A stretch of 64,000 nt of DNA from an uncultured Gemmatimonadota bacterium (lineage in GTDB: Bacteria > ARS69). The notes below the pieces were generated by a model. That model ran no database searches, was not told the DNA's origin, and was given only the letters and a program-made list of their open reading frames with translations. Location: contig CAYYFX010000006.1 of the NCBI GenBank assembly GCA_964471155.1, positions 3,679 to 67,678 of the forward strand, in the 5' to 3' direction. This document shows positions 25,014 through 41,622 of this stretch, one piece after another. Position numbers and translations under genes: made by a program. Within the stretch, counting starts at the first letter, position 1. The number at the start of each line of letters is the position of its first letter.

Positions 25014-26918
<1,905 letters not shown>

Positions 26919-26924
26919 GCGCGC

Positions 26925-27344
26925 CTACGCGCCTTCCGCCGGTTCCGGCAGCCGGTCCCGGCCCAGGTACGCCAGCGCGGCCTCGCGCGTGCGGAAGACC
27001 GCCACCCGCTTCATGCCGGCGGGATCCGCCTCGCGGTGCGCCTCGTACATGCGGGCGATGCCGAACGCGAAGTCCTGCGGCGCGACGATCGCGATCTTCG
27101 TGGGCGATGCCGGGGACGGCACGTCCATCGTGGCGGAGAACGCCGCGAGGTCGCGCACGCGGCCGGTGGACGGCAGCGCGATCTCCACGACCTCCGTGGT
27201 GTCCACGAGTTCGTCGAAGCCCTGCACGTCCTCGCGCGACCAGACCTCCCGCTGGAACGCGAAGATCTCCGTGTCCGAGACCGCTCCCCGGACGTGCGCG
27301 ACGACGAGGCGGTGGTCGTGGTGGATGGTGTAGTCGATCGGCAT
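26925..27344 (-). CDS. Hypothetical protein, possibly STAS/SpoIIAA-like
   Basis: 139 aa with unbiased composition, sandwiched between the transporter and the EBP with 6-15 nt gaps. The C-terminal pattern KIAIVAPQDFAFGIARMYE...VFRTREAALAYL resembles a STAS domain. This is a weak call. Confidence 0.45.
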   Translation of the reverse strand: MPIDYTIHHDHRLVVAHVRGAVSDTEIFAFQREVWSREDVQGFDELVDTTEVVEIALPSTGRVRDLAAFSATMDVPSPASPTKIAIVAPQDFAFGIARMYEAHREADPAGMKRVAVFRTREAALAYLGRDRLPEPAEGA

Positions 27345-27359
27345 GCGCTCTCCCGGCCC

Positions 27360-28667
27360 TCAGGCCGCCTCGGCCCTCCGACGGTACTCCCGTCCGATCG
27401 CCACCGCCACCGCGATCCACGCCGCCACCAGCACCAGGTTCACGCGCGCGAAGTCCTGCGTGGCGAGCGACAGCGGGACGGTCCCCACCCACACCAGCGC
27501 CGCGGACAGCAGGTCCCCCGCGCGCACGAAGAACGTGTCGATGGCCTGCTTCGCCTTGTACTTCTCCTCGCGCGTGGTCGGCAGGAAGAGCACGTTGCGG
27601 ACGGTGTTCTGCAGCGAGTAGTCCGTGGCGTTCTCCGCGGTCTTCGCCCAGCGCACCGCTGCCAGCACCGGCCAGAACGCGAGCAGCGCGTACGCGCCGA
27701 GCGCGATGACCGGCAGGACGAGGATCGCCACGCGCACGCCCAGGTACTTCAGGATGCGGGACACGAGGAAGAGCTGCAGCAGCACGCCGGCCAGGTTCAC
27801 GTAGAAGAAGAAGTCCGCGTAGAACGCCCCGATCCAGTCCCGCTCGGACATCTCCCCCGCGCGCTGCGCCGCTTCCGCCGCCACGACGCGGTCCAGCACG
27901 TAGCCGCCCGTGGTGTTCACCCAGTTGAGGAGCGCCATCAGGATCGCGATGAGCAGCAGGTAGCGGCTGCCGGTCACGAGACGGAACGCGCCGCCGGCGG
28001 CCAGCGGCTCCACCGGCGCCGGGGCCCCGCCGCGCGCGGCACCGCGCTCGCGATCGTCCACGGCGTGCGTGAGCAGGAGCGAGACGAGCAGCAGCCCCGC
28101 GGCGACGACCAGCATCTCCTCGACGCCGAGCGCGCGGATCATCCGGTTCGCCACCCAGCTCCCGGCCACCGCGCCGAACGAGGCGCCGAACGCCACGATC
28201 GCGAAGAGGCGCTTCCCGCGCTCCGGGGTGTACACGTCGTTGGCGAAGGACCAGAACTGCGCGATGACCATCAGGTTGAAGATGCCCACCCACAGGAAGA
28301 ACGCCACGCCGAGGTACGGGACGCGCGCCTTCGCGAGCAGCCAGAAGCCCACGAGACAGGCGGCGAAGAACACGGTGACCACGTCGATGAGCGTTCGCCG
28401 CGGGAAGCGCGAGGCGAGCCGCGCGTACGCCGGCACCGCGAACAGCAGGAGGAACGCCTGGCCCGCCGTGGTGTATGCCTTGAGCTCCGCGCCGCCGCCC
28501 GCCAGGATCAGCGCCTCGCGCACCGGCTTGATCAGGTAGTACGTGGTGAGGAGGAGGAGGACGTTGAGCGTGAGCAGCAGGACGGTGCCGCCCTCGCCGG
28601 CGCGGACCTCGGCGAACAGTCCCAGGAAGCGCTCGAGGGGGCTTCGCGGACGGTCGCCGGCTTCCAT
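27360..28667 (-). CDS. TLC-family (ATP/ADP-translocase-like) nucleotide transporter homolog
   Basis: About 11 TM segments. The TLC hallmark FWSFANDVYTPERGKRLFAIVAFGASFGAVAGSW corresponds to [26 protein letters not shown] in Rickettsia Tlc. Also LIKPVREALIL. Confidence 0.75.
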   Translation of the reverse strand: MEAGDRPRSPLERFLGLFAEVRAGEGGTVLLLTLNVLLLLTTYYLIKPVREALILAGGGAELKAYTTAGQAFLLLFAVPAYARLASRFPRRTLIDVVTVFFAACLVGFWLLAKARVPYLGVAFFLWVGIFNLMVIAQFWSFANDVYTPERGKRLFAIVAFGASFGAVAGSWVANRMIRALGVEEMLVVAAGLLLVSLLLTHAVDDRERGAARGGAPAPVEPLAAGGAFRLVTGSRYLLLIAILMALLNWVNTTGGYVLDRVVAAEAAQRAGEMSERDWIGAFYADFFFYVNLAGVLLQLFLVSRILKYLGVRVAILVLPVIALGAYALLAFWPVLAAVRWAKTAENATDYSLQNTVRNVLFLPTTREEKYKAKQAIDTFFVRAGDLLSAALVWVGTVPLSLATQDFARVNLVLVAAWIAVAVAIGREYRRRAEAA

Positions 28668-28736
28668 GCGGGCCTCGGGAACGGTTGACAGGGTGCGCGT
28701 CCGGCGGGAAGGCTCCCGGCGGAACGGAGGAGCGCG

Positions 28737-29963
28737 ATGAACCTTCCTCGACGGGGCGGCCGGCGGTCAAGGGCGGGCTGGGGGACGGCAGCGATCCTGG
28801 CCGGCGCCGTCGTCTGGCCGGCGCTGGCGGCGGCGCCGGCGTCCGCGGTGGACTGGCCGTGGGAAACGGACGACTACGACTGGCCCGACGGCTCGGACCT
28901 CCCGGTGGAGCCGCTGGACCGGCCGACCGCGGAGGCCGCGGTGGCGGAGGCCGTGGCCGCCGAGGGGCTCTTCCGCTTCGCGGTGTTCGGCGACCAGCGC
29001 GCCCTGGCGGACGGCGAGTGGCAGGAGCTGATGCGCCGCATCGTGGAGTGGGAGCGCGACCACGGCGACCTGGCGTTCGTCCTCGACACGGGCGACATCG
29101 TGAACGACGGCCGCCACACCAACCAGTTCCACCGGCTCACGACCGAGATCCTCTCGATCGCGCCGGAGCTGCCGTACCTGGTGGGCGTGGGCAACCACGA
29201 GGTGCACAACAACGAGGATCCGGCCGCGCGCGCGAACACCGCCGCGTACCTGCGCGCGCTGGACCCGCGGTTCTCCGCCGAGCGCATGTACTACCGCAAG
29301 GATCTCGGCGGCGCGACCTTCCTGTTCCTGGACACGAACGACCTCGTGTACGGCGACGCCGGCGAGCGCGGCGCGTGCCCGCCGGAACCGGAGCCGGGAT
29401 CGCGCGCCGCGGCGCAGGTGGACTGGCTGGCCGCGCAGCTCGCGGAGACCCGCGCCGCCGGGCCGCGGCTCGTGATCGCGGTGCTGCACCATCCCTTCGT
29501 GCAGTCCTCGGCGAAGCACCGCGCGTCCGCGGCCTCGCTGTGGAACCTGCGCGTGGACGGGACGCCCTTCGTGGACCTGCTCGTGGACGGCGGCGTGGAC
29601 GTGGTGCTGACCGGTCACACGCACACGTACGAGCGCTTCCACCTCCACCGCGAGGACGGCGCGCGCCTGGACGTGATCAACCTCTCGGGACGGCCGCGGG
29701 GGTCCGCGTTCGGGCTCGGCGCGGGACTGCGGCGGTCGAAGGACATCCGCGGCGAGGAACGCGTGCGGCTCGCCGACCGGGGCTGGCAGGGGCTGGAGCC
29801 GTGGACCATCACGCAGGAGGAGTGGCTGCCGAAGGACGAGGAGGCCGATCAGTTCGCCGTGTTCACCGTGGAGCCGGGCGGCGGGTTGACGATGGAGGTG
29901 CGTTTCCTCGACCCGGGCGCCGCGGCCGGAACGACCGGCGGACCGGCGGTGCGGTTGCGATAG
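28737..29963 (+). CDS. Secreted calcineurin-like metallophosphoesterase
   Basis: ATG 4 nt after GGAGGAG. Signal peptide. Phosphoesterase motifs: FGDQR...LDTGDIVNDG, GNHE, VLHHP, GHTHTYERF. Confidence 0.8.
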   Translation: MNLPRRGGRRSRAGWGTAAILAGAVVWPALAAAPASAVDWPWETDDYDWPDGSDLPVEPLDRPTAEAAVAEAVAAEGLFRFAVFGDQRALADGEWQELMRRIVEWERDHGDLAFVLDTGDIVNDGRHTNQFHRLTTEILSIAPELPYLVGVGNHEVHNNEDPAARANTAAYLRALDPRFSAERMYYRKDLGGATFLFLDTNDLVYGDAGERGACPPEPEPGSRAAAQVDWLAAQLAETRAAGPRLVIAVLHHPFVQSSAKHRASAASLWNLRVDGTPFVDLLVDGGVDVVLTGHTHTYERFHLHREDGARLDVINLSGRPRGSAFGLGAGLRRSKDIRGEERVRLADRGWQGLEPWTITQEEWLPKDEEADQFAVFTVEPGGGLTMEVRFLDPGAAAGTTGGPAVRLR

Positions 29964-29974
29964 CGGGCTCCGGC

Positions 29975-31633
29975 CTACTCGCCGTCCCTCAGGATGCCCG
30001 TGAGCCGCCAGGAGCCTCCGTCGCGCCGGTAGTGGGCCTCCGTGGGCGGCAGCGACCCCTCGCCACCCGCCGCCGTCCATCGCACCACCGCGTACTCCCG
30101 CCCCCGCACCACGTCCCCCGCCACCTCCGCCCCCGGCGCGCCCGCCTCCGTGGGTCCCGCGATCCGCCGCCCCGCGTCGTCCAGCACCTCCACGCGGTAC
30201 CGCAGCGCGGACGGTCTTCCCGCCTCCGCCAGCGCATCCCCGGCGTCCACGCGGAAGCCCTCGCCCTGCATCACCACGCGGTCCAGGCCCGTCACCGGCG
30301 TCACGCGCGTCAGCGCCCAGTCCACCGTCTTCTCCCACCGCGCCAGCAGCACGCGCGTGAGTTCCTCGTCCGCCGACGGGTCGTCGAACCGCGCCGCCGT
30401 CACCGCGGCCCGCACGTGCTCCGGCGTCAGCCGCGCCATCACCGTCCCCGCCCAGAACGCGTCCGCCGGCCGCCACGCCAGCACGGTGTCGTTCACGTAG
30501 TTCGCCTTCCACGCGGCGGGGTCGTACGCCTCCGCCTCGAACAACCCCACCAGCGGATGCCGCGGCGCGGCCAGCGTCTCGTACGGGCGGGTCAGCAACC
30601 CGAACGACGGGATGCCGGTCGCCACCTCGCCGAGATCGAAGTCGTAGGCGAAGCCGATGCGCGGCTCGAACCGCGCGGCCCAGTACCCGCCGAGGCACCC
30701 GTCGAAGTCCACGAGGTAGTGCCGCAGGAAGTGCCGGCCGTCCCCCTCCGTGTACAGGTCCAGCGAGTTGTCCTCCTTGAGATCCACGTGGTTCAGCCAC
30801 GCGCCGAACACGCGGAGCGCCCGCAGGGAGCGGCGCTGCGGGTGCGGGATCGTGTCGTTCGGGTCGTCGGCGCGCGTGCCGCGGTACGACCAGCCGCCGA
30901 TCGGCTTGCCCGGCAGGTAGCGGCTCACGAGCACGCGGTACTCGCCGGCGGCGTTGCGCGGCGCGTACTTCGCGAGCAGCGCGTCCACGGCCTCGTCCCG
31001 GATGGGCGCGCGCGTCCCGTCGTCGGCCTTGTCGGTGGCGCCCTCGGCCACCGTGAGCTGCTCGCGCGCGAAGTACACCACGCGGTCATCCGGCACGTGG
31101 TATCCGAGCGCCCAGAACAGCCGCGCCGCCACCGCGTCCGCCGCGGTGGCCACCACCGGCGCGTACGGCTTGTCGAACTTGCAGATGTACCGCACGCCGC
31201 GCGCGTCCTCGATGACGAGGCCGGGGTTGCGCCCGCCGCTCTTCATGCCGGTGATCTGCCAGGGGCGGAATGCCTCCGGCCCGGGATCCTCCCCGCCCGC
31301 GCCGGCTGCCACCTGCGCGGGGGTCGGCGTGCCGCGGTCCTCGTACCAGGAGGACGACGGCACCTCGCCGAAGCGGTTCACGTCCAGCGCGGGCGGCGCC
31401 GGCACCGGATCCAGGCCCAGGCGGATCCGCTTCGGTCCGAAGTTCTCGATGTGATGCGAGAGCCGCCAGAACTCCTTCTCCGCGGGCTCGGGGATGTCCG
31501 CCGTGTCGTGCACCACATGCACGGGCTCGCCATCCACGAAGCGCACCGGCGGCGGCGCGCACGACGCCGCGCCGAGCGCCGCCACGGCGGTGGCCACGAC
31601 CGCGGCGGCGCGCACGCCCGCGCGCGCCCTCAC
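29975..31633 (-). CDS. Lipoprotein with eukaryotic-protein-kinase-like catalytic motifs (putative secreted atypical kinase)
   Basis: GTG at 31633, 5 nt after GGAGG, overlapping the Omp85 gene's stop. Lipobox ALGAASC. Motifs GVRYICKFDK (beta3 Lys?), FGAWLNHVDLKEDNSL (HxD-LK-xx-N catalytic loop) and YLVDFDGCLG (DFG-like). The 5' ~1.4 kb of track ORF 29975..33004 is a frame artefact. Confidence 0.6.
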   Translation of the reverse strand: MRARAGVRAAAVVATAVAALGAASCAPPPVRFVDGEPVHVVHDTADIPEPAEKEFWRLSHHIENFGPKRIRLGLDPVPAPPALDVNRFGEVPSSSWYEDRGTPTPAQVAAGAGGEDPGPEAFRPWQITGMKSGGRNPGLVIEDARGVRYICKFDKPYAPVVATAADAVAARLFWALGYHVPDDRVVYFAREQLTVAEGATDKADDGTRAPIRDEAVDALLAKYAPRNAAGEYRVLVSRYLPGKPIGGWSYRGTRADDPNDTIPHPQRRSLRALRVFGAWLNHVDLKEDNSLDLYTEGDGRHFLRHYLVDFDGCLGGYWAARFEPRIGFAYDFDLGEVATGIPSFGLLTRPYETLAAPRHPLVGLFEAEAYDPAAWKANYVNDTVLAWRPADAFWAGTVMARLTPEHVRAAVTAARFDDPSADEELTRVLLARWEKTVDWALTRVTPVTGLDRVVMQGEGFRVDAGDALAEAGRPSALRYRVEVLDDAGRRIAGPTEAGAPGAEVAGDVVRGREYAVVRWTAAGGEGSLPPTEAHYRRDGGSWRLTGILRDGE

Positions 31634-32940
31634 CGCACCCTCCGCGACCGGCTCTCGAACACCGTCTCCGTGCCCACGAAGAACTGGAACCCCTCCTCGC
31701 TTCGCGCCACGTGCGCCGTGAACCCGTTGTCCCCGATCACGTACGCCACGCCGAGCCCGACCGACGGCTCGATGTCCGCCAGCCGCAGCTCGTCCGCACG
31801 CGCCGCCACCGTGCCCCAGTCCGCGAACAGGCTCCCGTGCATGCGCGTGGTCACCGGGTAGTGGTACTCCGCCGTCAGCAGCATCCCCGTGCGGTCCGTG
31901 AAGCGGTCCCGCGAGTACCCGCGCATCCCGGTCTTCCCGCCGAGGCGCACGAGCTCCGTGTAGGGGATGTCCTCCGGATCGTCGGACACCACGCCCTCCG
32001 CCATCGCCCGCAGCGCGAGCCGCCGGTTCCCGCGCCACACGTTCACGTGCGTCTGCACCTCGCCCAGCCAGTGCCGGTAGTCCGCGTCGCCGCCCGAGTC
32101 CGCCACGTTCGTCCCGCCGGCGACCCGCACGAGCGATCCCCGCGTGGCGAAGGCCTCGCGGTCCCGCGAGTCCCACGCCAGCTCCGCCTCCGCGCCGTGG
32201 TAGTCGCTGGACTTCGCGCGGGCGAACTCCTCCGGGAACCCGACGGCCACGGCCTCGTCCTCCTCGTCCTCCGGCGTGGCGAGATCGTCCCGTCGCGCGT
32301 AGCCCGTGAGCGCCGCCTTCCACTCCTTCGCCGGACGCAGCGCCACGGACGCCTCCACCAAGAGCCGCCGCCGCTGCGCCTCGAAGTCCTCCTCGCCCGA
32401 CTCCGGCCCGATCCCGTGGAACAGCCGCTTCGGCTTGTTGTCCACGCGCGCGAGCGCCTCCCATTGCAATACCTTCGGCGCGCTGCGGAAATGCGCGGCG
32501 ACCAGGTTCTCGTCGTCCGAGAGGAAGCCGCCGCTGAGGCGCAGCTTCGCGCCGGGCTGCGGCCAGTCCGTGGCGGTGGCGTCCAGCCCCACGAGCGAGA
32601 ACCCGAGGTTCGTCTCGTACCCGAAGAACAGCGTGGAGCGGAACGGTCCGCGCTGGTAGCCGAAGCTCAGGAGGTCCGCGAGCCCCGACAGCACGTGCGC
32701 GCGATCCTCGGCCTCGGCCAGCTTCACCACCGGCCAGGTGGCGACGCGCAGGCCCGCCCATGGCACGAACAGCAGGCCGCGGCCCACGTACTGCAGGGCG
32801 GAGGCCTGCCGCGGGAGGGGCCGCTCCGTTCCGCGGACGGCGGCCGTCGAGTCGGGCGCGCCCTCCGCGGCCCCCGCGGGGGGCCCGGAGAGCGCGAGGA
32901 CGGCCACCACCGCGAGCGAACCTGGGCGACGCAGGAACAT
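31630..32940 (-). CDS. Omp85/D15 surface-antigen-family outer-membrane beta-barrel protein
   Basis: Signal peptide MFLRRPGSLAVVAVLALSGPPAGAA. C-terminal barrel motifs LGGKTGMRGYSRDRFTDRTGMLLTAEYHYPV...GSLFADWGTV...SVGLGVAYV...FQFFVGTETVF. Confidence 0.7.
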   Translation of the reverse strand: MFLRRPGSLAVVAVLALSGPPAGAAEGAPDSTAAVRGTERPLPRQASALQYVGRGLLFVPWAGLRVATWPVVKLAEAEDRAHVLSGLADLLSFGYQRGPFRSTLFFGYETNLGFSLVGLDATATDWPQPGAKLRLSGGFLSDDENLVAAHFRSAPKVLQWEALARVDNKPKRLFHGIGPESGEEDFEAQRRRLLVEASVALRPAKEWKAALTGYARRDDLATPEDEEDEAVAVGFPEEFARAKSSDYHGAEAELAWDSRDREAFATRGSLVRVAGGTNVADSGGDADYRHWLGEVQTHVNVWRGNRRLALRAMAEGVVSDDPEDIPYTELVRLGGKTGMRGYSRDRFTDRTGMLLTAEYHYPVTTRMHGSLFADWGTVAARADELRLADIEPSVGLGVAYVIGDNGFTAHVARSEEGFQFFVGTETVFESRSRRVR

Positions 32941-33120
32941 CGGGCACCTTCCCCGGGAAGCGGCGAGGGCGCGGATCATCGGCGGGGGTCGCGGATCGCG
33001 TCAAGGCGCCGCCGTCCGAACCTCGCGCACGTCCCGCGCATCCAAGCGACGTCGGAGCGCGTCCGCCCCGGGCGTTCCCGGGGCCTGGCGTCGTTGCTGC
33101 GCCCCCGCCCGGGAATTAGG

Positions 33121-34803
33121 ATGGCCTCCATGTCCCAGACCGAACCCCTGGAGATCGCCCGCCGGGCCCCGTCCTCGGCGTCGGCGTCGGACTCCTCCGG
33201 TCCCGCGTTCGCGCGCTTCGACCCGGAGACCCGGCGCGAGGCCGAGCGGTCCCTGTCCGTCGCGGCGCTGACCTACGCGGTCGTGTACTTCCTGGCGTAC
33301 ACCACGGGCTGGCTGCTGGACCCCGGACCCGGTCCCTCCCCCTTCCCGCCCCTGCACTCCCTGGTCGTCGCCGGGCTCTCCATCCTCGGGGCGGTCGTCG
33401 TGGGGTTCAAGGCGCGCAAGGGGATGCTCCCCCCGGTCAGCTTCGAGCCGCTCGCCGGCGCGTTCGGCGTCCTGGGATCGCTCGGGATCGCGGCCGGGTC
33501 GCACGAGTGGCGCGCCTTCATCGAGGCGGATCCGCGGATCGCCGGCATCTCCTGGATCGGCGTGTGGGTCATCGCGTATCCGAACCTGGTGACGCTCTGC
33601 CCGATGACCGTGCTCCGTGTCGGGCTCCTGTCGGCCCTGTGCATGCCGGTCATGTACGCGATCGCGGTTCCCTTCGAGGGCCTGCCGGTCGTGGACGGCC
33701 GGCCCAGCGCGGGCGCGGCGATCACGTTCCTCGCGCAGCTCACGTTCCCCATCCTGCTCTGCGCGGGCATGTCCACGTTCATGGCCATCCGCATCTTCCG
33801 CATGGCCCACGACGTCTCGCGCGCCCGCCGCCTCGGCAACTACCACCTCGTGGAGCTGCTCGGACGCGGCGGCATGGGCGAGGTGTGGCGCGCCACGCAC
33901 CGTCTCCTCGCGCGGCCGGCGGCGGTGAAGGTGATCCGGTCGAACGGCGCGGGCGGCGGATCGTCCGGCTCCGGCACGCCGGGCAGCACCATGCTCAAGC
34001 GCTTCGAGCGCGAGGCGAAGGCCACGGCGTCCCTCACCTCGCCGCACACCGTGGCGCTGTACGACTTCGGTCTCGCCCAGGACGGCGCGTTCTACTACGT
34101 GATGGAGCTGCTCGAGGGCATGGACCTGCGCACGCTCGTCGAGAGGACGGGCCCGGTGCCGTCGGCGCGCGTGGTGCACTTTCTGCGCCAGGCCTGCGCC
34201 TCGCTCGCGGATGCGCACCAGTGCGGGCTGATCCACCGGGACGTGAAGCCCGCGAACCTGTACCTCTGCCGCCGCGGTCTCCAGTACGACTTCGTGAAGG
34301 TCCTGGACTTCGGCCTCGTGAAGGGCGCCCCCGAGGGGATGGACACGGGGCAGCTCACCATGGAGGGCACCACCAGCGGCACGCCGGCCTTCATGGCGCC
34401 GGAGATGTCGCTGGCGACCGGCCCGATCGACGCGCGGGTGGACCTGTATGCGCTCGGATGCGTGGCGTACTGGCTGCTGACGGGCCGACTGGTCTTCGAG
34501 GGGCCGAACGCCCTCGCCATCCTCGTGCAGCACGCCAAGGAGGAGCCGGTCCCGCCGTCGAAGGTCGTCGAGCTCCCCGTCAACCCCGACCTCGACGCGC
34601 TCGTGATGCAGCTCCTGCGGAAGGACCCGGCGCAGCGCCCCCCCGACGCCGTGGAGCTGGACCGCCGGCTGGCCGCCATCGAGGCGAAGCACGGCGCGTG
34701 GACGCAGGAGCAGGCCGAGCGCTGGTGGCGCGCGCACCTCCCGCACCTCGCGGGCGCGGGCGCCCTCCGGACGGAGCGTCCGCTCGCCGCTGCCGCGCCG
34801 TGA
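33121..34803 (+). CDS. Membrane-anchored Ser/Thr protein kinase (N-terminal ~230-aa polytopic domain, C-terminal Hanks kinase)
   Basis: Kinase motifs: GRGGMGEVW, AVKVI, HRDVKPANLYL, VLDFGL, GTPAFMAPE. The N-terminal region has 6-7 TM helices and no soluble sensor domain. Confidence 0.85.
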   Translation: MASMSQTEPLEIARRAPSSASASDSSGPAFARFDPETRREAERSLSVAALTYAVVYFLAYTTGWLLDPGPGPSPFPPLHSLVVAGLSILGAVVVGFKARKGMLPPVSFEPLAGAFGVLGSLGIAAGSHEWRAFIEADPRIAGISWIGVWVIAYPNLVTLCPMTVLRVGLLSALCMPVMYAIAVPFEGLPVVDGRPSAGAAITFLAQLTFPILLCAGMSTFMAIRIFRMAHDVSRARRLGNYHLVELLGRGGMGEVWRATHRLLARPAAVKVIRSNGAGGGSSGSGTPGSTMLKRFEREAKATASLTSPHTVALYDFGLAQDGAFYYVMELLEGMDLRTLVERTGPVPSARVVHFLRQACASLADAHQCGLIHRDVKPANLYLCRRGLQYDFVKVLDFGLVKGAPEGMDTGQLTMEGTTSGTPAFMAPEMSLATGPIDARVDLYALGCVAYWLLTGRLVFEGPNALAILVQHAKEEPVPPSKVVELPVNPDLDALVMQLLRKDPAQRPPDAVELDRRLAAIEAKHGAWTQEQAERWWRAHLPHLAGAGALRTERPLAAAAP

Positions 34804-34807
34804 TTCC

Positions 34808-37111
34808 GTGACGGTGGATCGCTCCCGCCTCGAAGGCGCGGTCGGCGTCGCCACGCTGTGCGCCTTCCTCCTGGTCGCCAACCAGGTCGCGGCGAAGGCC
34901 GTGCGCGACGCGCTCTTCCTCTCGCACTTCGACGTCACGCTCCTGCCCCGCCTGGTGATGGCCGCGTCCGCCGTGTCCATCGTGGCCGCGCTGGCGGCCT
35001 CCCGCCTGCTCGGGCGGTTCGGACCCTCCCGGCTCCTGCCCGCCGCCTGCGCGATCAGCGCGACCGTCGTGCTCGGCCTCGCCGCGATCCAGCCCGCCCT
35101 GCCGCGCGTGACCGCGGTCGGGATCTACGTGCACATCAGCATCTTCGGCGCGGTGCTCATCTCCTGGTTCTGGTCCATGCTGAACGAAGGGCTCGATCCG
35201 AGCACGGCGCGCCGGCGCGTGGGCCGCATCGCGGGCGGCGGGACGCTGGGCGGGCTGCTGGGCGGGCTCGCCGCGGAGCGCGTGGCCAGCATGTTCTCCA
35301 CGGACGCGATGCTCCCGCTGCTCGCCGCCGCGCACGCGGCGTGCGCGCTGCTGGCCTGGCAGACCTCCAGCGTGCTGGACATCCGCCACCCCGCGTCGGC
35401 CGGCGATCCGCCCGCGCGCTCGGGGTTCCAGGTGCTCGCCGAGGTCAGGTACCTGCGCGAGCTCGGCGCGCTCGTGATGGTGGGCACCGTCGCGGCCACG
35501 CTGCTGGACTTCGTGTTCAAGGCGCGCGCCGCCGCCACCTTCGACGGCGACGAGCTGCTCCGCGCCTTCGCGCTCTTCTACTCGGCCACGAGCCTCGCCA
35601 CCTTCCTGCTGCAGTCCACGCTGACGCGGCGGCTGCTGGCCCGCGGGGTGGCGCCCACCGCGGCCTCCCTGCCGGCGATCGTGACGCTGGGCGCGGCCGG
35701 CGCGCTCATCGTGCCCGGGTTCCTGGCGGCGGGCATCGCGCGCGGCCTGGAGTCCGCGGTGCGCAGCTCCTTCTTCCGGTCCAGCTACGAACTCTTCTAC
35801 ACGCCGGTGCGCCGCGCCGACAAGCGCGCGGCGAAGACGCTCGTGGACGTGGGCTTCGACCGCCTCGGGGACGCGGTGGGCGGCGGGCTCGTGCAGGTCG
35901 TGCTGCTGGGCGGCGCCGCGCTCGGCCTGGGGACCGCGGCCGGCGGCCTGACCACGGTGGCGCTGCTCGTCCTCGCCGGGGTGCTGGGGCTCGTCGGGCT
36001 GACGCTCGCCCGGCGGCTGGACCGAGGGTACACGCGCGCGCTGGAGTCCAGCCTTCTGGATCACGGCGCCCCGGGCGCCGGCGCCACGGCCACCACGCTG
36101 CGGTCCGCGCTGGAGTCGCAGTCCGCGTTCTTCCCCACGCTCACGCAGCTCGAGCTCGGCGGCGAGGGGATGGACGTCCGGGAAGGTACGCCGCCCGACG
36201 CGATCGCCGTGGCGGACGTCGCGGCGGCGGCGGCGGCGGCCCCGTCCGCGACGCCCGCGGCGCCCGCGGTCGACGCCCCGCCGGTTCCCGAGGACCCGGT
36301 GCTGCGGCACGCCACGGAGCTGCGCTCCGGGAACGTGGACCGCGTGCGCGCCGCCCTGGCCGCGATCGGCGAACCGCCCTCCGAGCTGATCTCCATCCTG
36401 ATCCGGCTGCTGGCATGGGACGCGGTTTCAGCGGACGTGGTGGAGGTGCTGCGCCGCGCCGGCGACCGGCACGTGGGGCAGCTCGTGGACGCGCTGCTGG
36501 ATCCGGACGAGGAGTTCGCCACGCGGCGGCGCCTGGCGCGCGTGCTCGCCACGAGCTCGTCGCCGCGGGCGGTGCGCGGACTGCTCGCCGCGCTCGGCGA
36601 CGCGCGCTTCGAGGTGCGCTTCCGCGCCGCCGTGGCGCTGGCGCGATTGCACGAGCGGCGCCCGGACGTGGAGATGGATCCGCTGTCGGTGCTCGCCGCC
36701 GTGGAGCGCGAGGCGCGCGTGAACCGGCACGTGTGGGAGAGCAACCGGCTGCTGGACGAGATCGGTCGCGAGGAGTCCCCGTTCTACGACGAGATCCTGC
36801 GCACGCGCTCGTCGCGCAGCCTGGAGCACGTGTTCAACGTGCTGTCGCTCGTGTACCCGCCGCAGGCCCTGCGCATCGCGTACCGCGGTCTGCACGCGGA
36901 GGACCGCACGCTGCGCGGCACCGCGCTGGAGTACCTGGAGCAGATCCTCCCGCCCGCCGTGCGGGAGTGCCTGTGGCCGTTCCTGGACGACGACCGGGAT
37001 GTCCACGGCGCGGCCCGCGGCCTGGACGACGTGATGGACTCCCTGCTGCGCTCGCACGAGTCCATCCAGGTGGATCTGCAGCGGCTGCGGCAACGCGAGG
37101 ACTCGCGCTGA
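34808..37111 (+). CDS. TLC-family transporter-like membrane domain fused to a C-terminal HEAT/ARM repeat domain
   Basis: GTG start 5 nt after the kinase stop. N-terminal ~400 aa with at least 10 TM and the TLC motif ISWFWSMLNEGLDPSTARRRVGRIAGGGTLGGLLGG. The C-terminus has HEAT-like repeats (RAVRGLLAALGDARFEVRFRAAVALARL...). Confidence 0.75.
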   Translation: MTVDRSRLEGAVGVATLCAFLLVANQVAAKAVRDALFLSHFDVTLLPRLVMAASAVSIVAALAASRLLGRFGPSRLLPAACAISATVVLGLAAIQPALPRVTAVGIYVHISIFGAVLISWFWSMLNEGLDPSTARRRVGRIAGGGTLGGLLGGLAAERVASMFSTDAMLPLLAAAHAACALLAWQTSSVLDIRHPASAGDPPARSGFQVLAEVRYLRELGALVMVGTVAATLLDFVFKARAAATFDGDELLRAFALFYSATSLATFLLQSTLTRRLLARGVAPTAASLPAIVTLGAAGALIVPGFLAAGIARGLESAVRSSFFRSSYELFYTPVRRADKRAAKTLVDVGFDRLGDAVGGGLVQVVLLGGAALGLGTAAGGLTTVALLVLAGVLGLVGLTLARRLDRGYTRALESSLLDHGAPGAGATATTLRSALESQSAFFPTLTQLELGGEGMDVREGTPPDAIAVADVAAAAAAAPSATPAAPAVDAPPVPEDPVLRHATELRSGNVDRVRAALAAIGEPPSELISILIRLLAWDAVSADVVEVLRRAGDRHVGQLVDALLDPDEEFATRRRLARVLATSSSPRAVRGLLAALGDARFEVRFRAAVALARLHERRPDVEMDPLSVLAAVEREARVNRHVWESNRLLDEIGREESPFYDEILRTRSSRSLEHVFNVLSLVYPPQALRIAYRGLHAEDRTLRGTALEYLEQILPPAVRECLWPFLDDDRDVHGAARGLDDVMDSLLRSHESIQVDLQRLRQREDSR

Positions 37112-37121
37112 ATCGCCCGGC

Positions 37122-37135
37122 GGTCCGGCCGGACC
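37122..37135 (+). terminator. Perfect 14-nt palindrome GGTCCGGCCGGACC 11 nt after the TLC-HEAT stop; possible U-tract-less terminator hairpin
   Basis: Self-complementary sequence at 37122-37135 with no following T-run. Confidence 0.2.
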
Positions 37136-37297
37136 CCGATCAGGCCGCCGCCCGGCTCGTGCACCCGGCCAGCGCGAGCGCGGCCCCCAGGACGACTCCC
37201 ACGCGACGGGACACGCGATCTCCTCCGGGAGCGGGGAAGGCAGTATGCTTCGCGACCCGACGGGACACAAGCGGCCGCGAGGGCGGAGGGTACACGC

Positions 37298-39187
37298 ATG
37301 GAACAGGCCGCGGCCGCCGAACGCCCGTCGCGGGCCGCGTTCGTCATGGGCATGGTGCTGCTGGTCGCACTCGTGCTCGGCGTGTACGCGCGGACCGTCG
37401 GCTTCGGCCTCACCTCCTGGGACGACGACGTCCACCTGACCGCGAACCCGCGGCTGGCGCCCACGCTCGCGAGCGCCGCCGGGTTCTGGGCGGCGCCGTA
37501 CTCGGGGCTGTACATCCCGCTCACGTACACGGTGTACGCGGCGGAGGCCGCGCTGGCGGAGGCGCTCGCCGGGGATCCGCTCGATCCACGCGTGTTCCAC
37601 GCGGGGTGCGTCGTGCTGCACGCGGCGGCGGCGTGCCTGGCCTTCGCGCTCCTGCACGCGGTGACGGGGAGGGCGACGCCGGCGGTCCTGGGCGCCGCCC
37701 TGTGGGCCGTGCATCCGCTGCAGGTGGAGAGCGTGGCGTGGGTGTCCGAGACGAAGGGGCTGCTGGCGGCGGTGTTCATGCTCGCCGCGCTGCGGGCCTA
37801 CCTGCGATTCCGGGATGCGGGTCGCGGGCGCGGCGCGTACCTGCTCGCCACGGCGTGCTTCGCGCTGGCGCTGCTCGCGAAGCCGGTGGCGCTCGTGACG
37901 CCGCTGCTCGCCGTCATCCTGGACGCCGGAGTGCGCCGCCGGCCGCTGCGCGACGCGTGGCGACCGCTCGCGCCGTGGTTCGCGCTGGCCGCCGGGTTCG
38001 CCCTGCTCACGAAGGCGCTGCAGCCCGACGACGTCGTGATGGACATCGCGCCGGTCGCCGCGCGGCCGATCGTCGCGCTCGACGCGTTGGGGTTCTACCT
38101 GGCGAGGACCGTGGCGCCGTTCGACCTCGCGATCGACTATGGGCGTTCGCCGGCGGCGGTCCTCTCGCGGCCGGCGTGGGGCGGGCTGTGGATCGTGGCG
38201 CTGCTGGTCGCCGCCGCGGGCGCGGCGCCGCCGCTGCGGCGAACGGTCGGCGTTCCGCTCCTGTGGTTCGCCGCCGCGCTGTCCCCCGTGCTCGGACTCG
38301 TGCCGTTCGGCTACCAGTACACGTCCACCGTCGCGGACCGCTACGTGTACGTCGCGCTGCTGGGGCCGGCGATGGCGGCGGTGTTCCTGCTGGCGCGCTT
38401 CCCGGGGCGCACGGCCCGCGTCGTGGCGGCGGCGGCCGTCGTCCTGCTCGCGCAGGCGTCCCTGCGGCAGGCGAACGCGTGGCGCTCCAGCGGCACGCTG
38501 TACGCGGCCACGCTCGCCGTGAACCCGGGCAGCATCCACGCGAACAACAACCTCGGGCTGCTCGCGCTGGAGGAGGAGCGCGCGGCGGAGGCGCTGGCGC
38601 GATTCGACCGCGCGCTCGCCACGCGCGACGACTACGTGCCGGCGCTGGTGAACCGCGCGAAGGCGCTGCGCCGGCTGGGCCGCGAGGACGAGGCGGTCGC
38701 CGCGGCGGAGCGCGCGGCGGGGATCGCGCCGGGGTTCGTCCCCGCGCGCGTGGAAGCCGCCGCCGCCCTGCTCGCGGCGGGGCGCGAGGACGACGCGGTG
38801 GCGCACCTCCAGGCCGCGTTCGCCGCGCGGCCGGACGACCCGGACGTGAACGTGAGCCTCGCGCGTTTCGCCCGGTCCCGCGGCGAGATCGCCGTGGCCG
38901 AGCAGCATCTGCGCCGCGCGCTGGCGGCGGACCCCGGCTTCGCGGAGGCGCACCGCGAGCTGGCCTCGTGCCTCTGGCAGCAGGGCGACGAGGCCGCCGC
39001 GGTTGCCGCCTACGAGGCCGCGTTGCGCGCGGACCCGCGATCCTTCGCGGCCCATCGCGACCTGGGCAAGCTGCTCATGAACCGCGGGGATGCGGCGGGT
39101 GCCGCCGCCCACTGGCGGGAGGCCGCCGCGCTCCGGCCGGAGGATGCGGAAGTGCGCGCCTACCTGCAGCGGCTGGTCGGCGAATAG
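37298..39187 (+). CDS. TMTC/PMT_2-like polytopic membrane protein with C-terminal TPR repeats (putative glycosyltransferase-family scaffold)
   Basis: ATG 7 nt after GGAGGG. N-terminal loop motif TSWDDDVHLTANP (the DD/DE motif of PMT/TMTC-type C-family glycosyltransferases). At least 10 TM segments. Five or more C-terminal TPRs (NNNLGLLALEEER..., AEAHRELASCLWQQGD...). Confidence 0.75.
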   Translation: MEQAAAAERPSRAAFVMGMVLLVALVLGVYARTVGFGLTSWDDDVHLTANPRLAPTLASAAGFWAAPYSGLYIPLTYTVYAAEAALAEALAGDPLDPRVFHAGCVVLHAAAACLAFALLHAVTGRATPAVLGAALWAVHPLQVESVAWVSETKGLLAAVFMLAALRAYLRFRDAGRGRGAYLLATACFALALLAKPVALVTPLLAVILDAGVRRRPLRDAWRPLAPWFALAAGFALLTKALQPDDVVMDIAPVAARPIVALDALGFYLARTVAPFDLAIDYGRSPAAVLSRPAWGGLWIVALLVAAAGAAPPLRRTVGVPLLWFAAALSPVLGLVPFGYQYTSTVADRYVYVALLGPAMAAVFLLARFPGRTARVVAAAAVVLLAQASLRQANAWRSSGTLYAATLAVNPGSIHANNNLGLLALEEERAAEALARFDRALATRDDYVPALVNRAKALRRLGREDEAVAAAERAAGIAPGFVPARVEAAAALLAAGREDDAVAHLQAAFAARPDDPDVNVSLARFARSRGEIAVAEQHLRRALAADPGFAEAHRELASCLWQQGDEAAAVAAYEAALRADPRSFAAHRDLGKLLMNRGDAAGAAAHWREAAALRPEDAEVRAYLQRLVGE

Positions 39188-39342
39188 TCCGCCTTCGCCT
39201 CGAGAAGGTGCTCGGTGTGTCCGCGGAGTTCTGGCTCGGGCTCCAGCAGGACTGGGATCTGTGGCACGCGTTACGTGCGCCGGAGGCCCGGGCCATCGCG
39301 CGGCTCAAGCCGTTGCCGGAGCCGCGCCGGAGCGCGGCGTGA
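39181..39342 (+). pseudogene. Remnant of a HigA-family (XRE-HTH) antitoxin gene; only the C-terminal ~50 codons remain
   Basis: The frame-1 translation RLRLEKVLGVSAEFWLGLQQDWDLWHALRAPEA matches the HigA C-terminus (ALRLARFFGTSPEFWLNLQTAYDL). The HTH-encoding 5' part is missing because the upstream TPR gene ends at 39187 in another frame. Confidence 0.4.
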
Positions 39343-39537
39343 TGGTCAAGGCTCCGCGGCCCGGGGCGAGTCCCCCCAGGCGGCCGTGATCGCGCCGAAG
39401 ATGTCCGCCTGGTCCACGTACGGACCGCGCACCGGATCCGTCCCGCGGTGGCGAGGAAGACGTTGTGGCCGGCGCCGTCCGCGATGAGGAGGATGACGTG
39501 CTTCGCGCGCGCGGCGGATGCCCACGAGGCCTTCACG

Positions 39538-41028
39538 TCACCGGAATCGCGCCTTGATCGATCCCCAGGTGGCCCGCTCCAGGGACGACGGACCGCACCA
39601 CGCACCGAGCACGCCGATGAGCCCGCAGCCGCCGCTGTTCCCGGCCGCGCACGGCGAGTCCGCCTGCAGGCTGAAGTCCTCGTTCTCCCGCGAGCAGAAC
39701 AGGGGATCCGCGCAGAGGTTCCCGTCCGCGCCCTCCCGACCGGCGAGGCAGTCGGTCCAGTCCCCGCCGTGGTTGCCGAAGATGTCGGTGCAGCGGACCG
39801 TCAGCGCCGCGGGTGTTCCGGCGCAGCGGACCGGGGTGATGGGGCCGTCGGGCGCGCCGCCGAAGGCCAGGATGGAGTTCTCCAGCACCAGCGTGCCGCC
39901 CTCCTGGATCTCGATCGTGGCCATCGGCCGGCAGCCGACCCAGACGCAGTGGTCCGCCGTCACCGAACCGCTCGGGCCCCCGCACAGGCTACCGGCCGTG
40001 ATGCTGCTCCGCTGCCGACTGCTCCCGACGAACGTGCAGTGCTCCAGCCGAACGCGGCCCGCGCAGAACAGGTCCGTCCCGCCCATCCAGCCGCCCCAGT
40101 TGCGGAGGAACGTGGTGTTCCGGATCGTCACGTTCCCGTACAGGAAGCCCGCCCCGCCGAACACGTCCGCCGAGCAGTCCTCGAACACGCAGCTTCCCAC
40201 GAGGACCTCGCTGTCGGGGCCGGTGAACAGACCGCCGCTGTCCACGTTCCAGCCGCCGTTGAACCGGCAGCGGAGGATCGCCGCCTTCCCGCCGACGATC
40301 ACGTGGTTGCCGCTCGTGTACTCGCAGTACGGCGCCCCGCCCGGATCGAAGATGCAGTCGATCAGCGAGCCGTCGTCCATGCAGACCGCGCCGCCGTAGG
40401 CGCACGCGCCGTTCCCGCGGAAGAGGCAGCGTTCCACCTCGACCCGACCGCCCCGCGCGTAGATCGCGCCGCCGTAGATCGCCGCGCTGTTCTCGATGAA
40501 CTCGCAGTCCAGCGCGCGCAGGAATCCCCCCTCGATGAAGACGCCGCCGCCGCGGGCCGCGCCGCTCACGTACGGGACCCCCTCGACACGGCAGTCCACC
40601 AGCGTCAGCGACGCCCCGCCCGCGCGGATCGCCCCGCCGTCGCCTTCCCCGGTCCACCGCCCGTGGAACGCGTTGGCCATCGTGATGCCCTCGATGCGCG
40701 CCGTGGTCCCCGCGTCGAATGCGAAGCAGAAGTGCGGCGAGCGCCCGTGGCCCTCGTCCCCGTCGAGGATGGTGGCGTCGATCATGGTGGCGTCGCGGCC
40801 GGAGACCGACCGGAAGTCCAGGTCCTTGGCGCCGACCTGGATGTCCAGGTTCTCGAGCCCGCCGAACACCCCGGCACCCAGCTCGATGACGTCCCCGCTC
40901 TGGGCGAGCTGCACGGCGGAGCGCAGGTCCGGGACGTCACCGGACCCGTCCGGGTTCACGAGGATCGTGGCGGCAAACGCGGAGCCGGAGGCGATCAGGA
41001 ATACCGGCGCGAAGACGATCGGGCGCAT
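39538..41028 (-). CDS. Secreted right-handed parallel beta-helix (pectate-lyase-fold) protein with C-terminal ATWGSIKARFR motif
   Basis: ATG at 41028 after GGAGG. Signal peptide MRPIVFAPVFLIASGSAFAATIL. Many Gly/Asn/Cys-rich ~22-aa beta-helix repeats (GGAIYARGGRVEVERCLFRGNGA...). The 5' part of track ORF 39538..41124 is not included. Confidence 0.7.
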   Translation of the reverse strand: MRPIVFAPVFLIASGSAFAATILVNPDGSGDVPDLRSAVQLAQSGDVIELGAGVFGGLENLDIQVGAKDLDFRSVSGRDATMIDATILDGDEGHGRSPHFCFAFDAGTTARIEGITMANAFHGRWTGEGDGGAIRAGGASLTLVDCRVEGVPYVSGAARGGGVFIEGGFLRALDCEFIENSAAIYGGAIYARGGRVEVERCLFRGNGACAYGGAVCMDDGSLIDCIFDPGGAPYCEYTSGNHVIVGGKAAILRCRFNGGWNVDSGGLFTGPDSEVLVGSCVFEDCSADVFGGAGFLYGNVTIRNTTFLRNWGGWMGGTDLFCAGRVRLEHCTFVGSSRQRSSITAGSLCGGPSGSVTADHCVWVGCRPMATIEIQEGGTLVLENSILAFGGAPDGPITPVRCAGTPAALTVRCTDIFGNHGGDWTDCLAGREGADGNLCADPLFCSRENEDFSLQADSPCAAGNSGGCGLIGVLGAWCGPSSLERATWGSIKARFR

Positions 41029-41127
41029 GGGACCTCCCCGTCCACGACCCGAGGGCACGCCCCACACTAGGAGCACCCACGCCCCGTTACAAGCGCCGAG
41101 GATCCTCACGACGCACGCTGACATTTG

Positions 41128-41622
41128 TCAGGGTCTCGCCGGCCGGCCTCCCTGCAGCGTGTCGCGCACCGCGGTCTGCCGGTACGTGAAGATCCGGTGG
41201 AGCTGCCGCTGCACCAGGGGCAACGCCCCGTCCCCGAGCGGTGCGAACGGCAGCCGGTACCGCACGCGATCCCGGATGCGCGTCCCGCTCGCCGTGTCCT
41301 CGAAGTCGTGCGTGTGGACCCACCGCGCGTACGGCCCCGCGATCTGCTCATCGGTGAACGCGAGCGGCGGCTCCCACCGCGTGATGCGCGACGTCCACCC
41401 GAACGGCACGCCGAACAGGCGCAACCGGTACCGGATCTCCGCGCCCGGGCGCATGGCGATCGGGGGCGGCGTCACGATGCGGAAGCGAAGCTCCGGCGGC
41501 GTGATCCGCTCCAGGTTCCCGGCCTCGCCGAAGAACGCGAAGACCACGTCCCGCGGGAGCGGAAGGTCCATCTCCGCCTCCAGGACGTGATCCCCGCCGT
41601 CACGCAGCCCGGTCCGGACCAC
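41128..41622 (-). CDS. SRPBCC-superfamily protein (polyketide-cyclase/Bet v1-like)
   Basis: 164 aa from the GTG at 41622. The alternative ATG at 41571 has GGAGG 5 nt upstream and would give 147 aa. Typical SRPBCC pattern ...[21 protein letters not shown]... Confidence 0.65.

Follow-up and report, generated by a model that had tools for sequence, protein, structure and literature searches.

A Hanks-type kinase with a six-helix membrane domain linked to a divergent HEAT-fused NTT/TLC transporter in a conserved five-family gene module

Fusions of an NTT-type transport domain with HEAT repeats form an uncharacterised monophyletic clade that is common among free-living bacteria, Acidobacteria and Deltaproteobacteria being two examples (Major, Embley and Williams 2017, PMC5381601). 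A gene of this kind lies in a stretch of 64,000 nucleotides from an uncultured Gemmatimonadota bacterium (GenBank assembly GCA_964471155.1, contig CAYYFX010000006.1; the whole stretch is called the window below). Its product, termed TLC-HEAT here, shares with the described fusions an N-terminal NTT/TLC domain and C-terminal repeats of family PF13646, a likeness by architecture. Immediately upstream lies the gene for STK, a serine/threonine kinase with an N-terminal membrane domain. The locus raises the question of whether this kinase is a partner of the transporter, and with which further proteins and on which cargo the two would act. A preliminary description, made from the letters of the window, had proposed a signalling module of these two genes; its remark that HEAT-fused TLC proteins have no demonstrated function agrees with the study cited above. 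Here we report genomic evidence that STK and TLC-HEAT are functional partners. We give a probability of about 0.5 to the reading that they form a dedicated kinase-transporter pair within a conserved envelope module of five protein families. The two-gene module proved too small, as the unit covers ~10 kb and adds a second, shorter transporter (TLC2), an Omp85 barrel and an exported lipoprotein with a kinase-like fold, all missed in the preliminary description.

Linkage of the kinase and transporter genes across genomes

Since the window is ~73% GC, coding frames were picked by third-position GC content (GC3). The open reading frames (ORFs) of STK and TLC-HEAT have GC3 values of 0.96-0.97, and both are coding frames on the + strand. 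STK begins with ATG at 33121 and ends with a TGA stop at 34801-34803, and TLC-HEAT (767 amino acids, 34808-37111) starts with GTG at 34808; no in-frame start was found upstream of this codon. The GTG start had been predicted correctly, together with a distance of 5 nucleotides from the kinase stop, which counts to the G of GTG; the spacer itself is 4 nucleotides.

For the comparison across genomes, 185,579 species genomes were scanned with a TLC-HEAT alignment. At least 486 loci with a relative were obtained, of which 80 were kept with up to 8 kb of flank per side, 42 of them with full flanks. These loci were searched with the window proteins by tblastn, and their ORFs were also clustered all-against-all. 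The closest genome locus, from an uncultured Gemmatimonadota metagenome-assembled genome, shows 91% amino-acid identity. An orthologous STK was found within 8 kb of TLC-HEAT in 52 of the 80 loci (30 of the 42 with full flanks). The two genes are directly adjacent in 40 loci and in three gene orders, the kinase standing upstream on the same strand (15 loci), next downstream (22) or convergent (3); in locus L163 they overlap by 8 nucleotides. Kinase-domain identity to the window STK is bimodal, with 61 matches at 45-95%, 15 at 25-40% and none between. The membrane domain is present in the same ORF in 55 of the 61 high-identity kinases and in none of the 15 low-identity ones. Linked loci come from Gemmatimonadota, Acidobacteriota (Vicinamibacterales, Bryobacterales, Terriglobia), Krumholzibacteriota, Latescibacteria, Eiseniibacteriota and Myxococcota. 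When three STK orthologues were sampled independently, two adjoined TLC genes. The linkage of STK and TLC-HEAT is strong, not obligatory, and supports the view that they are functional partners. The proposed partnership is thereby borne out by a membrane-domain kinase that is orthologous from locus to locus; loss of synteny in other genomes had been named as the observation that would speak against it, and the genes are instead kept together across phyla.

Five families recur across the 80 loci: STK, TLC-HEAT, TLC2, the Omp85 barrel and the 552-residue lipoprotein. No others were detected by tblastn and ORF clustering; the extra ORF clusters turned out to be shadows of these five, read antisense or in an alternative frame. 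TLC2 accompanies TLC-HEAT at a distance of up to 8 kb in 36 of the 80 loci (24/42 with full flanks), its orthologues showing 43-62% identity and often standing directly after the kinase gene. The lipoprotein is found within the same distance in 25 loci (19 with full flanks) and the Omp85 barrel in 17 (13 with full flanks), the barrel being probably undercounted because its sequence similarity is weak. Where both are detected, the barrel gene is nearly always directly upstream of the lipoprotein gene. The order in Vicinamibacterales is TLC-HEAT, STK, TLC2, Omp85, lipoprotein, which places the kinase between both transporter genes. Since adjacency of kinase and TLC-HEAT, often with other module genes, recurs in five or more phyla, the module genes almost certainly work together.

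In the window the five genes fit into 9.8 kb, arranged in two divergent operons with TLC2 in addition. The Omp85 gene (31630-32979, - strand) is the first of the operon that diverges from the kinase operon and is followed by the lipoprotein gene (29975-31633, -); TLC2 is encoded at 27360-28667 (-). Read directly from the sequence, the divergent intergenic region comprises 141 bp (32980-33120), in which a promoter scan gave one weak sigma-70-like match on the minus strand. No terminator-like sites were seen in 27000-41500; both scans are uninformative at 73% GC.

Architecture of the kinase and of the two transporters

The kinase domain of STK, encoded together with a Trp-rich C-terminal tail at 33826-34803, matches Pfam Pkinase with 128 bits over residues 241-507. 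The AlphaFold model of STK has a predicted local distance difference test score (pLDDT) of 86 and aligns by Foldseek to PknB with a template-modelling score (TM-score) of 0.88 and 38% identity. Among 43 orthologues, G248, G250, K270, H372-R373-D374, N379 and D396-F397-G398 are invariant. Judged by its sequence, this is a standard Hanks domain in which every catalytic motif is present. STK thus shares with PknB the kinase fold and all catalytic motifs, at 36-38% identity. However, in PknB a single membrane helix and extracellular PASTA sensors follow the kinase domain, whereas STK has six helices before it and no extracytoplasmic sensor after it. The NCBIfam model PknB_PASTA_kin reaches 233 bits, short of its cut-off of 450, and aligns to the kinase domain alone.

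The N-terminal ~235 residues (33121-33825) are hydrophobic by hydropathy, and AlphaFold places six membrane helices there at pLDDT >90 (residues 35-66, 78-99, 108-125, 145-156, 161-186 and 197-238). A domain of ~230 residues with 6-7 helices had been anticipated in this place, and so had the lack of the usual C-terminal sensor domain, of which none is present. In the model, helix 197-238 continues unbroken into the N-lobe of the kinase. L45, Y52, W145 and W149 of the membrane domain are invariant, and it contains the motif 'GVSWVGVWI'. No Pfam or NCBIfam family matched the domain, and Foldseek with the full STK model was uninformative about it because only kinase-domain matches were returned. 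A profile of the membrane domain was therefore searched against 1.84 billion cluster representatives. It found 875, with the domain N-terminal in all and full-length proteins of 520-600 amino acids. When ten shorter matches were compared with Pfam, seven contained a kinase domain, in most cases truncated, and the other three matched nothing. Other fusion partners were not seen in this search; the domain occurs on kinase-length proteins or fragments. The six-helix domain is thus essentially exclusive to this kinase family, and STK represents a distinct family of kinases. The tail (residues 508-560, 34642-34803) carries a conserved 'WTxExAExWWRxHLP' motif with invariant W527, W535 and W536, and could be a docking element. 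In two loci the membrane-domain kinase is duplicated in tandem upstream of TLC-HEAT (L006, 4527-7872; L057, 290-3723).

TLC-HEAT consists of a membrane domain of ~410 residues (34808-36040), an Ala/Pro-rich linker of ~80 residues and ~270 residues of cytoplasmic HEAT repeats with a highly conserved C-terminal region (36041-37111 for linker and HEAT part together). Hence, a TLC domain of ~400 residues had been estimated well, while ~350 residues of HEAT repeats was an overestimate. Twelve helices are assigned to the membrane domain from the family profile against NTT structures and from hydropathy, which shows 11-12 segments between residues 9 and 404. Pfam TLC (PF03219) stays below threshold in the window protein (18.7 bits, cut-off 21, residues 314-370 only); most homologues have a precomputed PF03219 match. 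A profile of 30 homologues matched solved NTTs, with E = 2.6e-18 for 9j3j (chloroplast NTT1) and E = 3.7e-13 for 9j3n, across helices 3-12 (profile positions 93-403). HEAT_2 (PF13646) is found at residues 559-616 with 34 bits (cut-off 27.7), and the profile matches alphaRep and PBS-type HEAT proteins with E down to 2.5e-30. Many residues are invariant between positions 534 and 746. The HEAT and C-terminal region is conserved as strongly as the membrane domain, as expected for a specific interaction surface. TLC2 (435 amino acids) lacks a HEAT domain. It matches Pfam TLC with 42.8 bits (cut-off 21) and also MFS_1, of the major facilitator superfamily (MFS), aligns to 9j3n with E = 4e-5 and is 27% identical to the membrane domain of TLC-HEAT. 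By these matches, TLC-HEAT and TLC2 do belong to the NTT/TLC superfamily, although both have diverged within it.

Mutagenesis of Arabidopsis NTT1 assigned ADP binding to Lys155, ATP binding to Lys527 and translocation to Glu245, and the exchange K527E abolished ATP binding (PMC3306366). In the HMMER profile alignment, Lys527 falls on an invariant Asp355 of TLC-HEAT ('dRlGD' against 'NPLGK'), three residues after an invariant Arg352, and TLC2 also has Asp at this position. Glu245 aligns to the non-conserved position 111 (Ser111 in the window protein), and TLC2 has Gly. A further residue of NTT1, a conserved membrane glutamate which we take to be Glu385 and which agrees with the NTT1 sequence in the alignments, corresponds to an invariant Asp234 of TLC-HEAT; the invariant Lys238 matches a Lys of NTT1 four residues on. 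The alignments begin after the region of Lys155, where no conserved Lys is apparent by eye at the expected place; Lys30, Arg33 and Asp34 in helix 1 of TLC-HEAT are conserved or invariant.

Compared with the classical ATP/ADP translocases (plant NTT1 and Npt/Tlc of Chlamydia and Rickettsia), TLC-HEAT shares the FWxxxNE, YxPL and KxxIDV stretches and keeps Glu385 as Asp. It differs from them at Lys527 and Glu245, adds a C-terminal extension of ~350 residues and belongs to free-living hosts with large genomes. Because both TLC proteins have Asp at the Lys527 position and have lost Glu245, ATP/ADP exchange should not be assumed, and the cargo may differ from ATP/ADP. Consequently, the nucleotide-transporter identity given in the preliminary description is doubtful; agreement is seen in superfamily homology and in the acidic residue at Glu385, and does not extend to the other two positions. 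Absence of the conserved charged residues had been named there as part of the evidence that would speak against such an identity, and this is partly what we find, at Lys527 and Glu245.

The Omp85 barrel, the lipoprotein and neighbouring genes

The window Omp85 protein (449 amino acids) has a signal-like N-terminal segment and matches Pfam Omp85 in its C-terminal barrel domain (47.4 bits, cut-off 24). Its stop codon overlaps the GTG start of the lipoprotein gene (GTGA), so that the two are translationally coupled. The lipobox of the lipoprotein (552 amino acids) ends at Cys25, a residue conserved at 90% or more. No match was obtained in Pfam or NCBIfam, and sequence searches of the PDB with the protein and with the family profile gave nothing relevant. 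One search returned 649 homologues, and those listed with a source name are all called 'hypothetical protein'.

An AlphaFold model built on a 39-sequence alignment reached a pLDDT of 92.8 and a predicted TM-score (pTM) of 0.91. All seven Foldseek matches to the PDB with E ≤0.001 are kinases, CtkA of Helicobacter pylori and the Golgi casein kinase Fam20C being found with probabilities of 0.99-1.0; Rio2, PINK1, HipA and PI3K-like kinases lie just below the threshold. The TM-scores are modest (0.3-0.5), which indicates a distant relationship. Nine residues are invariant in the 39 sequences, which range down to 34% identity. They comprise K131, G134 and G138 of a Gly-rich loop, the beta-3 Lys K152, D154, D284 and N289 in the catalytic loop 'HVDLKEDN' (where conservation of H282 and K286 is 90% or higher) and D309 and F310 of the metal-binding 'DFD'. 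In the model each motif maps to the secondary-structure element expected for it. The Gly-rich loop, beta-3 Lys, catalytic Asp/Asn and metal-binding Asp in an exported kinase fold are features shared with Fam20C and CtkA. The lipoprotein differs from these two in being coupled to Omp85 and a kinase by prediction, with ~10-13% identity and no sequence-family match. Membership in the named kinase families HipA, CotH, Fam20 and PI3/4K was not found, apart from a faint HipA_2 match in 2 of the 39 members (E = 0.016). On the strength of the model, the lipoprotein is an exported kinase-fold protein of a large, unnamed family and a predicted kinase.

In a reverse search, 80 loci were collected from metagenome contigs seeded with the lipoprotein family. 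In 61 of them an Omp85 gene immediately precedes that of the lipoprotein homologue, while TLC2 was found in 9, TLC-HEAT in 7 and STK in 4; among loci of at least 10 kb about a quarter contain a TLC gene. Given this minority, the barrel-lipoprotein pair is best described as a broader family, a subset of which travels with TLC and kinase genes.

Krumholzibacteriota, Latescibacteria and some Gemmatimonadota have an Omp85 protein of ~850 residues where the barrel-lipoprotein pair would otherwise stand. Such proteins were seen in L163 (5366-7918) and in L035, L036, L039, L043, L020, L030, L064, L048, L026 and L162. Their N-terminal ~600 residues contain invariant 'Y.FR..DKDP', 'GDWDRHRxQW' and 'DRD' motifs, the spacing of which matches Lys152, Asp284 and Asp309 of the lipoprotein. 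Comparison with the kinase core of the lipoprotein by hhalign gave no match to the core, only one to a helical segment after it (E = 0.015, probability 3%). Fusion of a kinase-like domain to these barrels is a possible lead at the level of motifs.

Next to the lipoprotein gene, and convergent with it, lies a gene (28737-29963, +) for a calcineurin-like phosphoesterase of 408 amino acids (Metallophos, 48 bits), whose hydrophobic N-terminus ends in AAAPASA and is a putative signal peptide. Homologues adjoin the lipoprotein gene in only 5 of 160 loci (L002, L016, L128, L133 and L151), following it in the last four, and the phosphoesterase was accordingly not counted as a core gene. The arrangement hints at an exported kinase-phosphoesterase pair. 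Downstream of TLC-HEAT, after 186 nucleotides, a polytopic membrane protein of 629 amino acids is encoded (37298-39187, +). It has about eight hydrophobic segments in residues 1-370, where Pfam has no match, and TPR families in residues 370-625. It is present solely in the two closest loci (L001 and L002) and is a lineage-specific protein outside the conserved module. A beta-helix protein (39538-41124, -) and, just beyond TLC2, a sigma-54 activator with GAF and PAS sensor domains (25017-26924, -) are likewise not conserved with the module across loci.

Possible functions of the module

In Mycobacterium tuberculosis, pknF adjoins the gene of Rv1747, an ABC transporter that is phosphorylated by PknF, which provides a precedent for a kinase-transporter pair. 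Both cases combine a kinase gene with that of a transporter bearing a cytoplasmic interaction module; control by phosphorylation belongs to the mycobacterial pair and is putative in the present one. They also differ in composition, ABC and FHA domains there against an NTT/MFS-like carrier and HEAT repeats here, and in the topology of the kinase. As a dedicated pair, STK would sit in the inner membrane beside the transporters, and its membrane domain would sense the state of the transporter or of the membrane, or else a cue from the periplasm or from lipids. The long helix running from the last membrane helix into the N-lobe would relay this signal to the kinase domain. The kinase might then phosphorylate TLC-HEAT on its cytoplasmic linker or HEAT platform, and possibly loops of TLC2, and so switch transport on or off. 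The cargo would be a small, charged molecule that is related to the ATP/ADP pair of classical NTTs, though probably different from it, and its transport is probably tied to the divergently encoded pair of Omp85 barrel and kinase-like lipoprotein at the outer membrane.

Several observations weigh against a dedicated pair within such a module. Contact between kinase and HEAT repeats, and phosphorylation of the latter, are inferred. Twelve of the 42 full-flank loci have no linked orthologous kinase, and one sampled STK orthologue is flanked by an RND efflux operon on one side and a radical-SAM gene on the other, away from any TLC gene; because of this TLC-free context, the pairing must be called frequent rather than obligatory. 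In addition, most homologues of the Omp85-lipoprotein pair occur without TLC genes.

There are other explanations of the locus. The carriers might supply energy to the periplasm, exporting ATP or another nucleotide donor, returning the spent nucleotide and fuelling the lipoprotein held by Omp85, with STK matching supply to demand. This account covers all five genes at once, and classical NTTs are ATP/ADP exchangers (PMC3306366). It is in keeping with the intact kinase motifs, lipobox and kinase-like fold of the lipoprotein, with secreted kinases (CtkA, Fam20C) among its best structural matches, with its presence near TLC-HEAT in 19 of 42 full-flank loci and with the spacing of the five genes in the window, where all lie within 10 kb. 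It also fits the 851-residue Omp85 proteins, which hold the same place in other phyla with their kinase-like 'GDWDRHRxQW' and 'DRD' motifs, and the exported phosphoesterase that sometimes follows the lipoprotein gene. However, both carriers have Asp where NTT1 has Lys527, and the K527E variant of NTT1 cannot bind ATP; Glu245 is not conserved either. Only about a quarter of the lipoprotein loci of at least 10 kb hold a TLC gene, and most barrel-lipoprotein pairs do without one. Activity, substrate and topology of the lipoprotein are predicted, and the 851-residue proteins are kinase-like by motifs, the hhalign match (3%) lying outside the kinase core. We regard periplasmic energy supply as a rather unlikely explanation. 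The same doubt attaches to its extension to trans-envelope phosphorylation, which we judge improbable. Here NTT-type carriers would feed an Omp85-tethered lipoprotein kinase acting on an envelope or surface target, the Hanks kinase would gate the supply and, in other phyla, a kinase-like domain fused to the Omp85 barrel would possibly take the role of the lipoprotein. If true, bacteria would have an equivalent of the ATP import that serves Fam20-type kinases in the eukaryotic secretory pathway, which would contradict the textbook view of a periplasm that has no dedicated ATP supply.

Alternatively, the two carriers could scavenge an external nucleotide-like nutrient, for example a nucleotide, nicotinamide adenine dinucleotide (NAD) or S-adenosylmethionine (SAM), in the manner of the proton-driven NTT-family importers of other bacteria, with uptake tuned by the kinase and the Omp85-lipoprotein pair being an unrelated neighbour. 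The NTT family includes NAD and SAM carriers, and altered pocket residues fit a substrate other than ATP. Both TLC proteins belong to the NTT superfamily, most Omp85-lipoprotein homologues stand alone, and NTT-family genes are widespread in free-living bacteria (PMC5381601). Yet in about half of the full-flank loci, and in several phyla, the pair or its 851-residue form is encoded close to TLC-HEAT, which is hard to reconcile with an unrelated neighbour, and import would not obviously need two paralogous carriers and a dedicated kinase; scavenging is thus doubtful. A different role for the membrane domain of STK is conceivable, namely as an accessory subunit of a TLC complex, the kinase reporting flux to other cytoplasmic targets rather than regulating transport. 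The exclusive membrane domain with its invariant Trp and Tyr residues, the rigid helix joining it to the kinase and the tight coupling of the genes would suit this idea. Clustering of ORFs from the 80 loci revealed no conserved candidate for a downstream target encoded in the module, however, and the subunit role is putative, so that we consider it quite unlikely. Least probable by far is that the genes adjoin by chance and have no functional link. Acidobacteriota, Myxococcota and Gemmatimonadota encode many Hanks kinases, and unrelated kinases do occur in the flanks of some loci. Against this, the linked kinases belong to a single orthologous family marked by a membrane domain of its own, this family is kept through three gene orders and several phyla, and a single Hanks kinase is present in the entire 64-kb window; the linkage data therefore contradict chance adjacency.

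The study that described NTT-HEAT fusions reports a link to cyclic-nucleotide-binding domains and mentions no Hanks kinase, second TLC protein, Omp85 protein or kinase-like lipoprotein (PMC5381601). A literature search found no later functional work on NTT-HEAT proteins and no kinase linked to them, nor a description of the lipoprotein family or of a periplasmic nucleotide supply for an exported kinase. While the fusion architecture was already known, novelty appears to lie in the conserved partnership with a kinase, in the five-gene module and in the family of kinase-fold lipoproteins. For annotators, the pocket changes (Lys527 to Asp, loss of Glu245) are a caution, as the label 'ATP:ADP antiporter', used by several databases, is unjustified for these proteins. 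The Omp85-lipoprotein pair, which is mostly TLC-free, merits study in its own right, and the lipoprotein, if active, would give diderm bacteria a kinase outside the cytoplasm. As members of the ATP/ADP-translocase superfamily are repeatedly encoded near it, the nucleotide source of periplasmic enzymes becomes a testable matter. For the NTT-HEAT proteins themselves, whose function has been unexplained since their description in 2017, the conserved genetic partners provide a handle.

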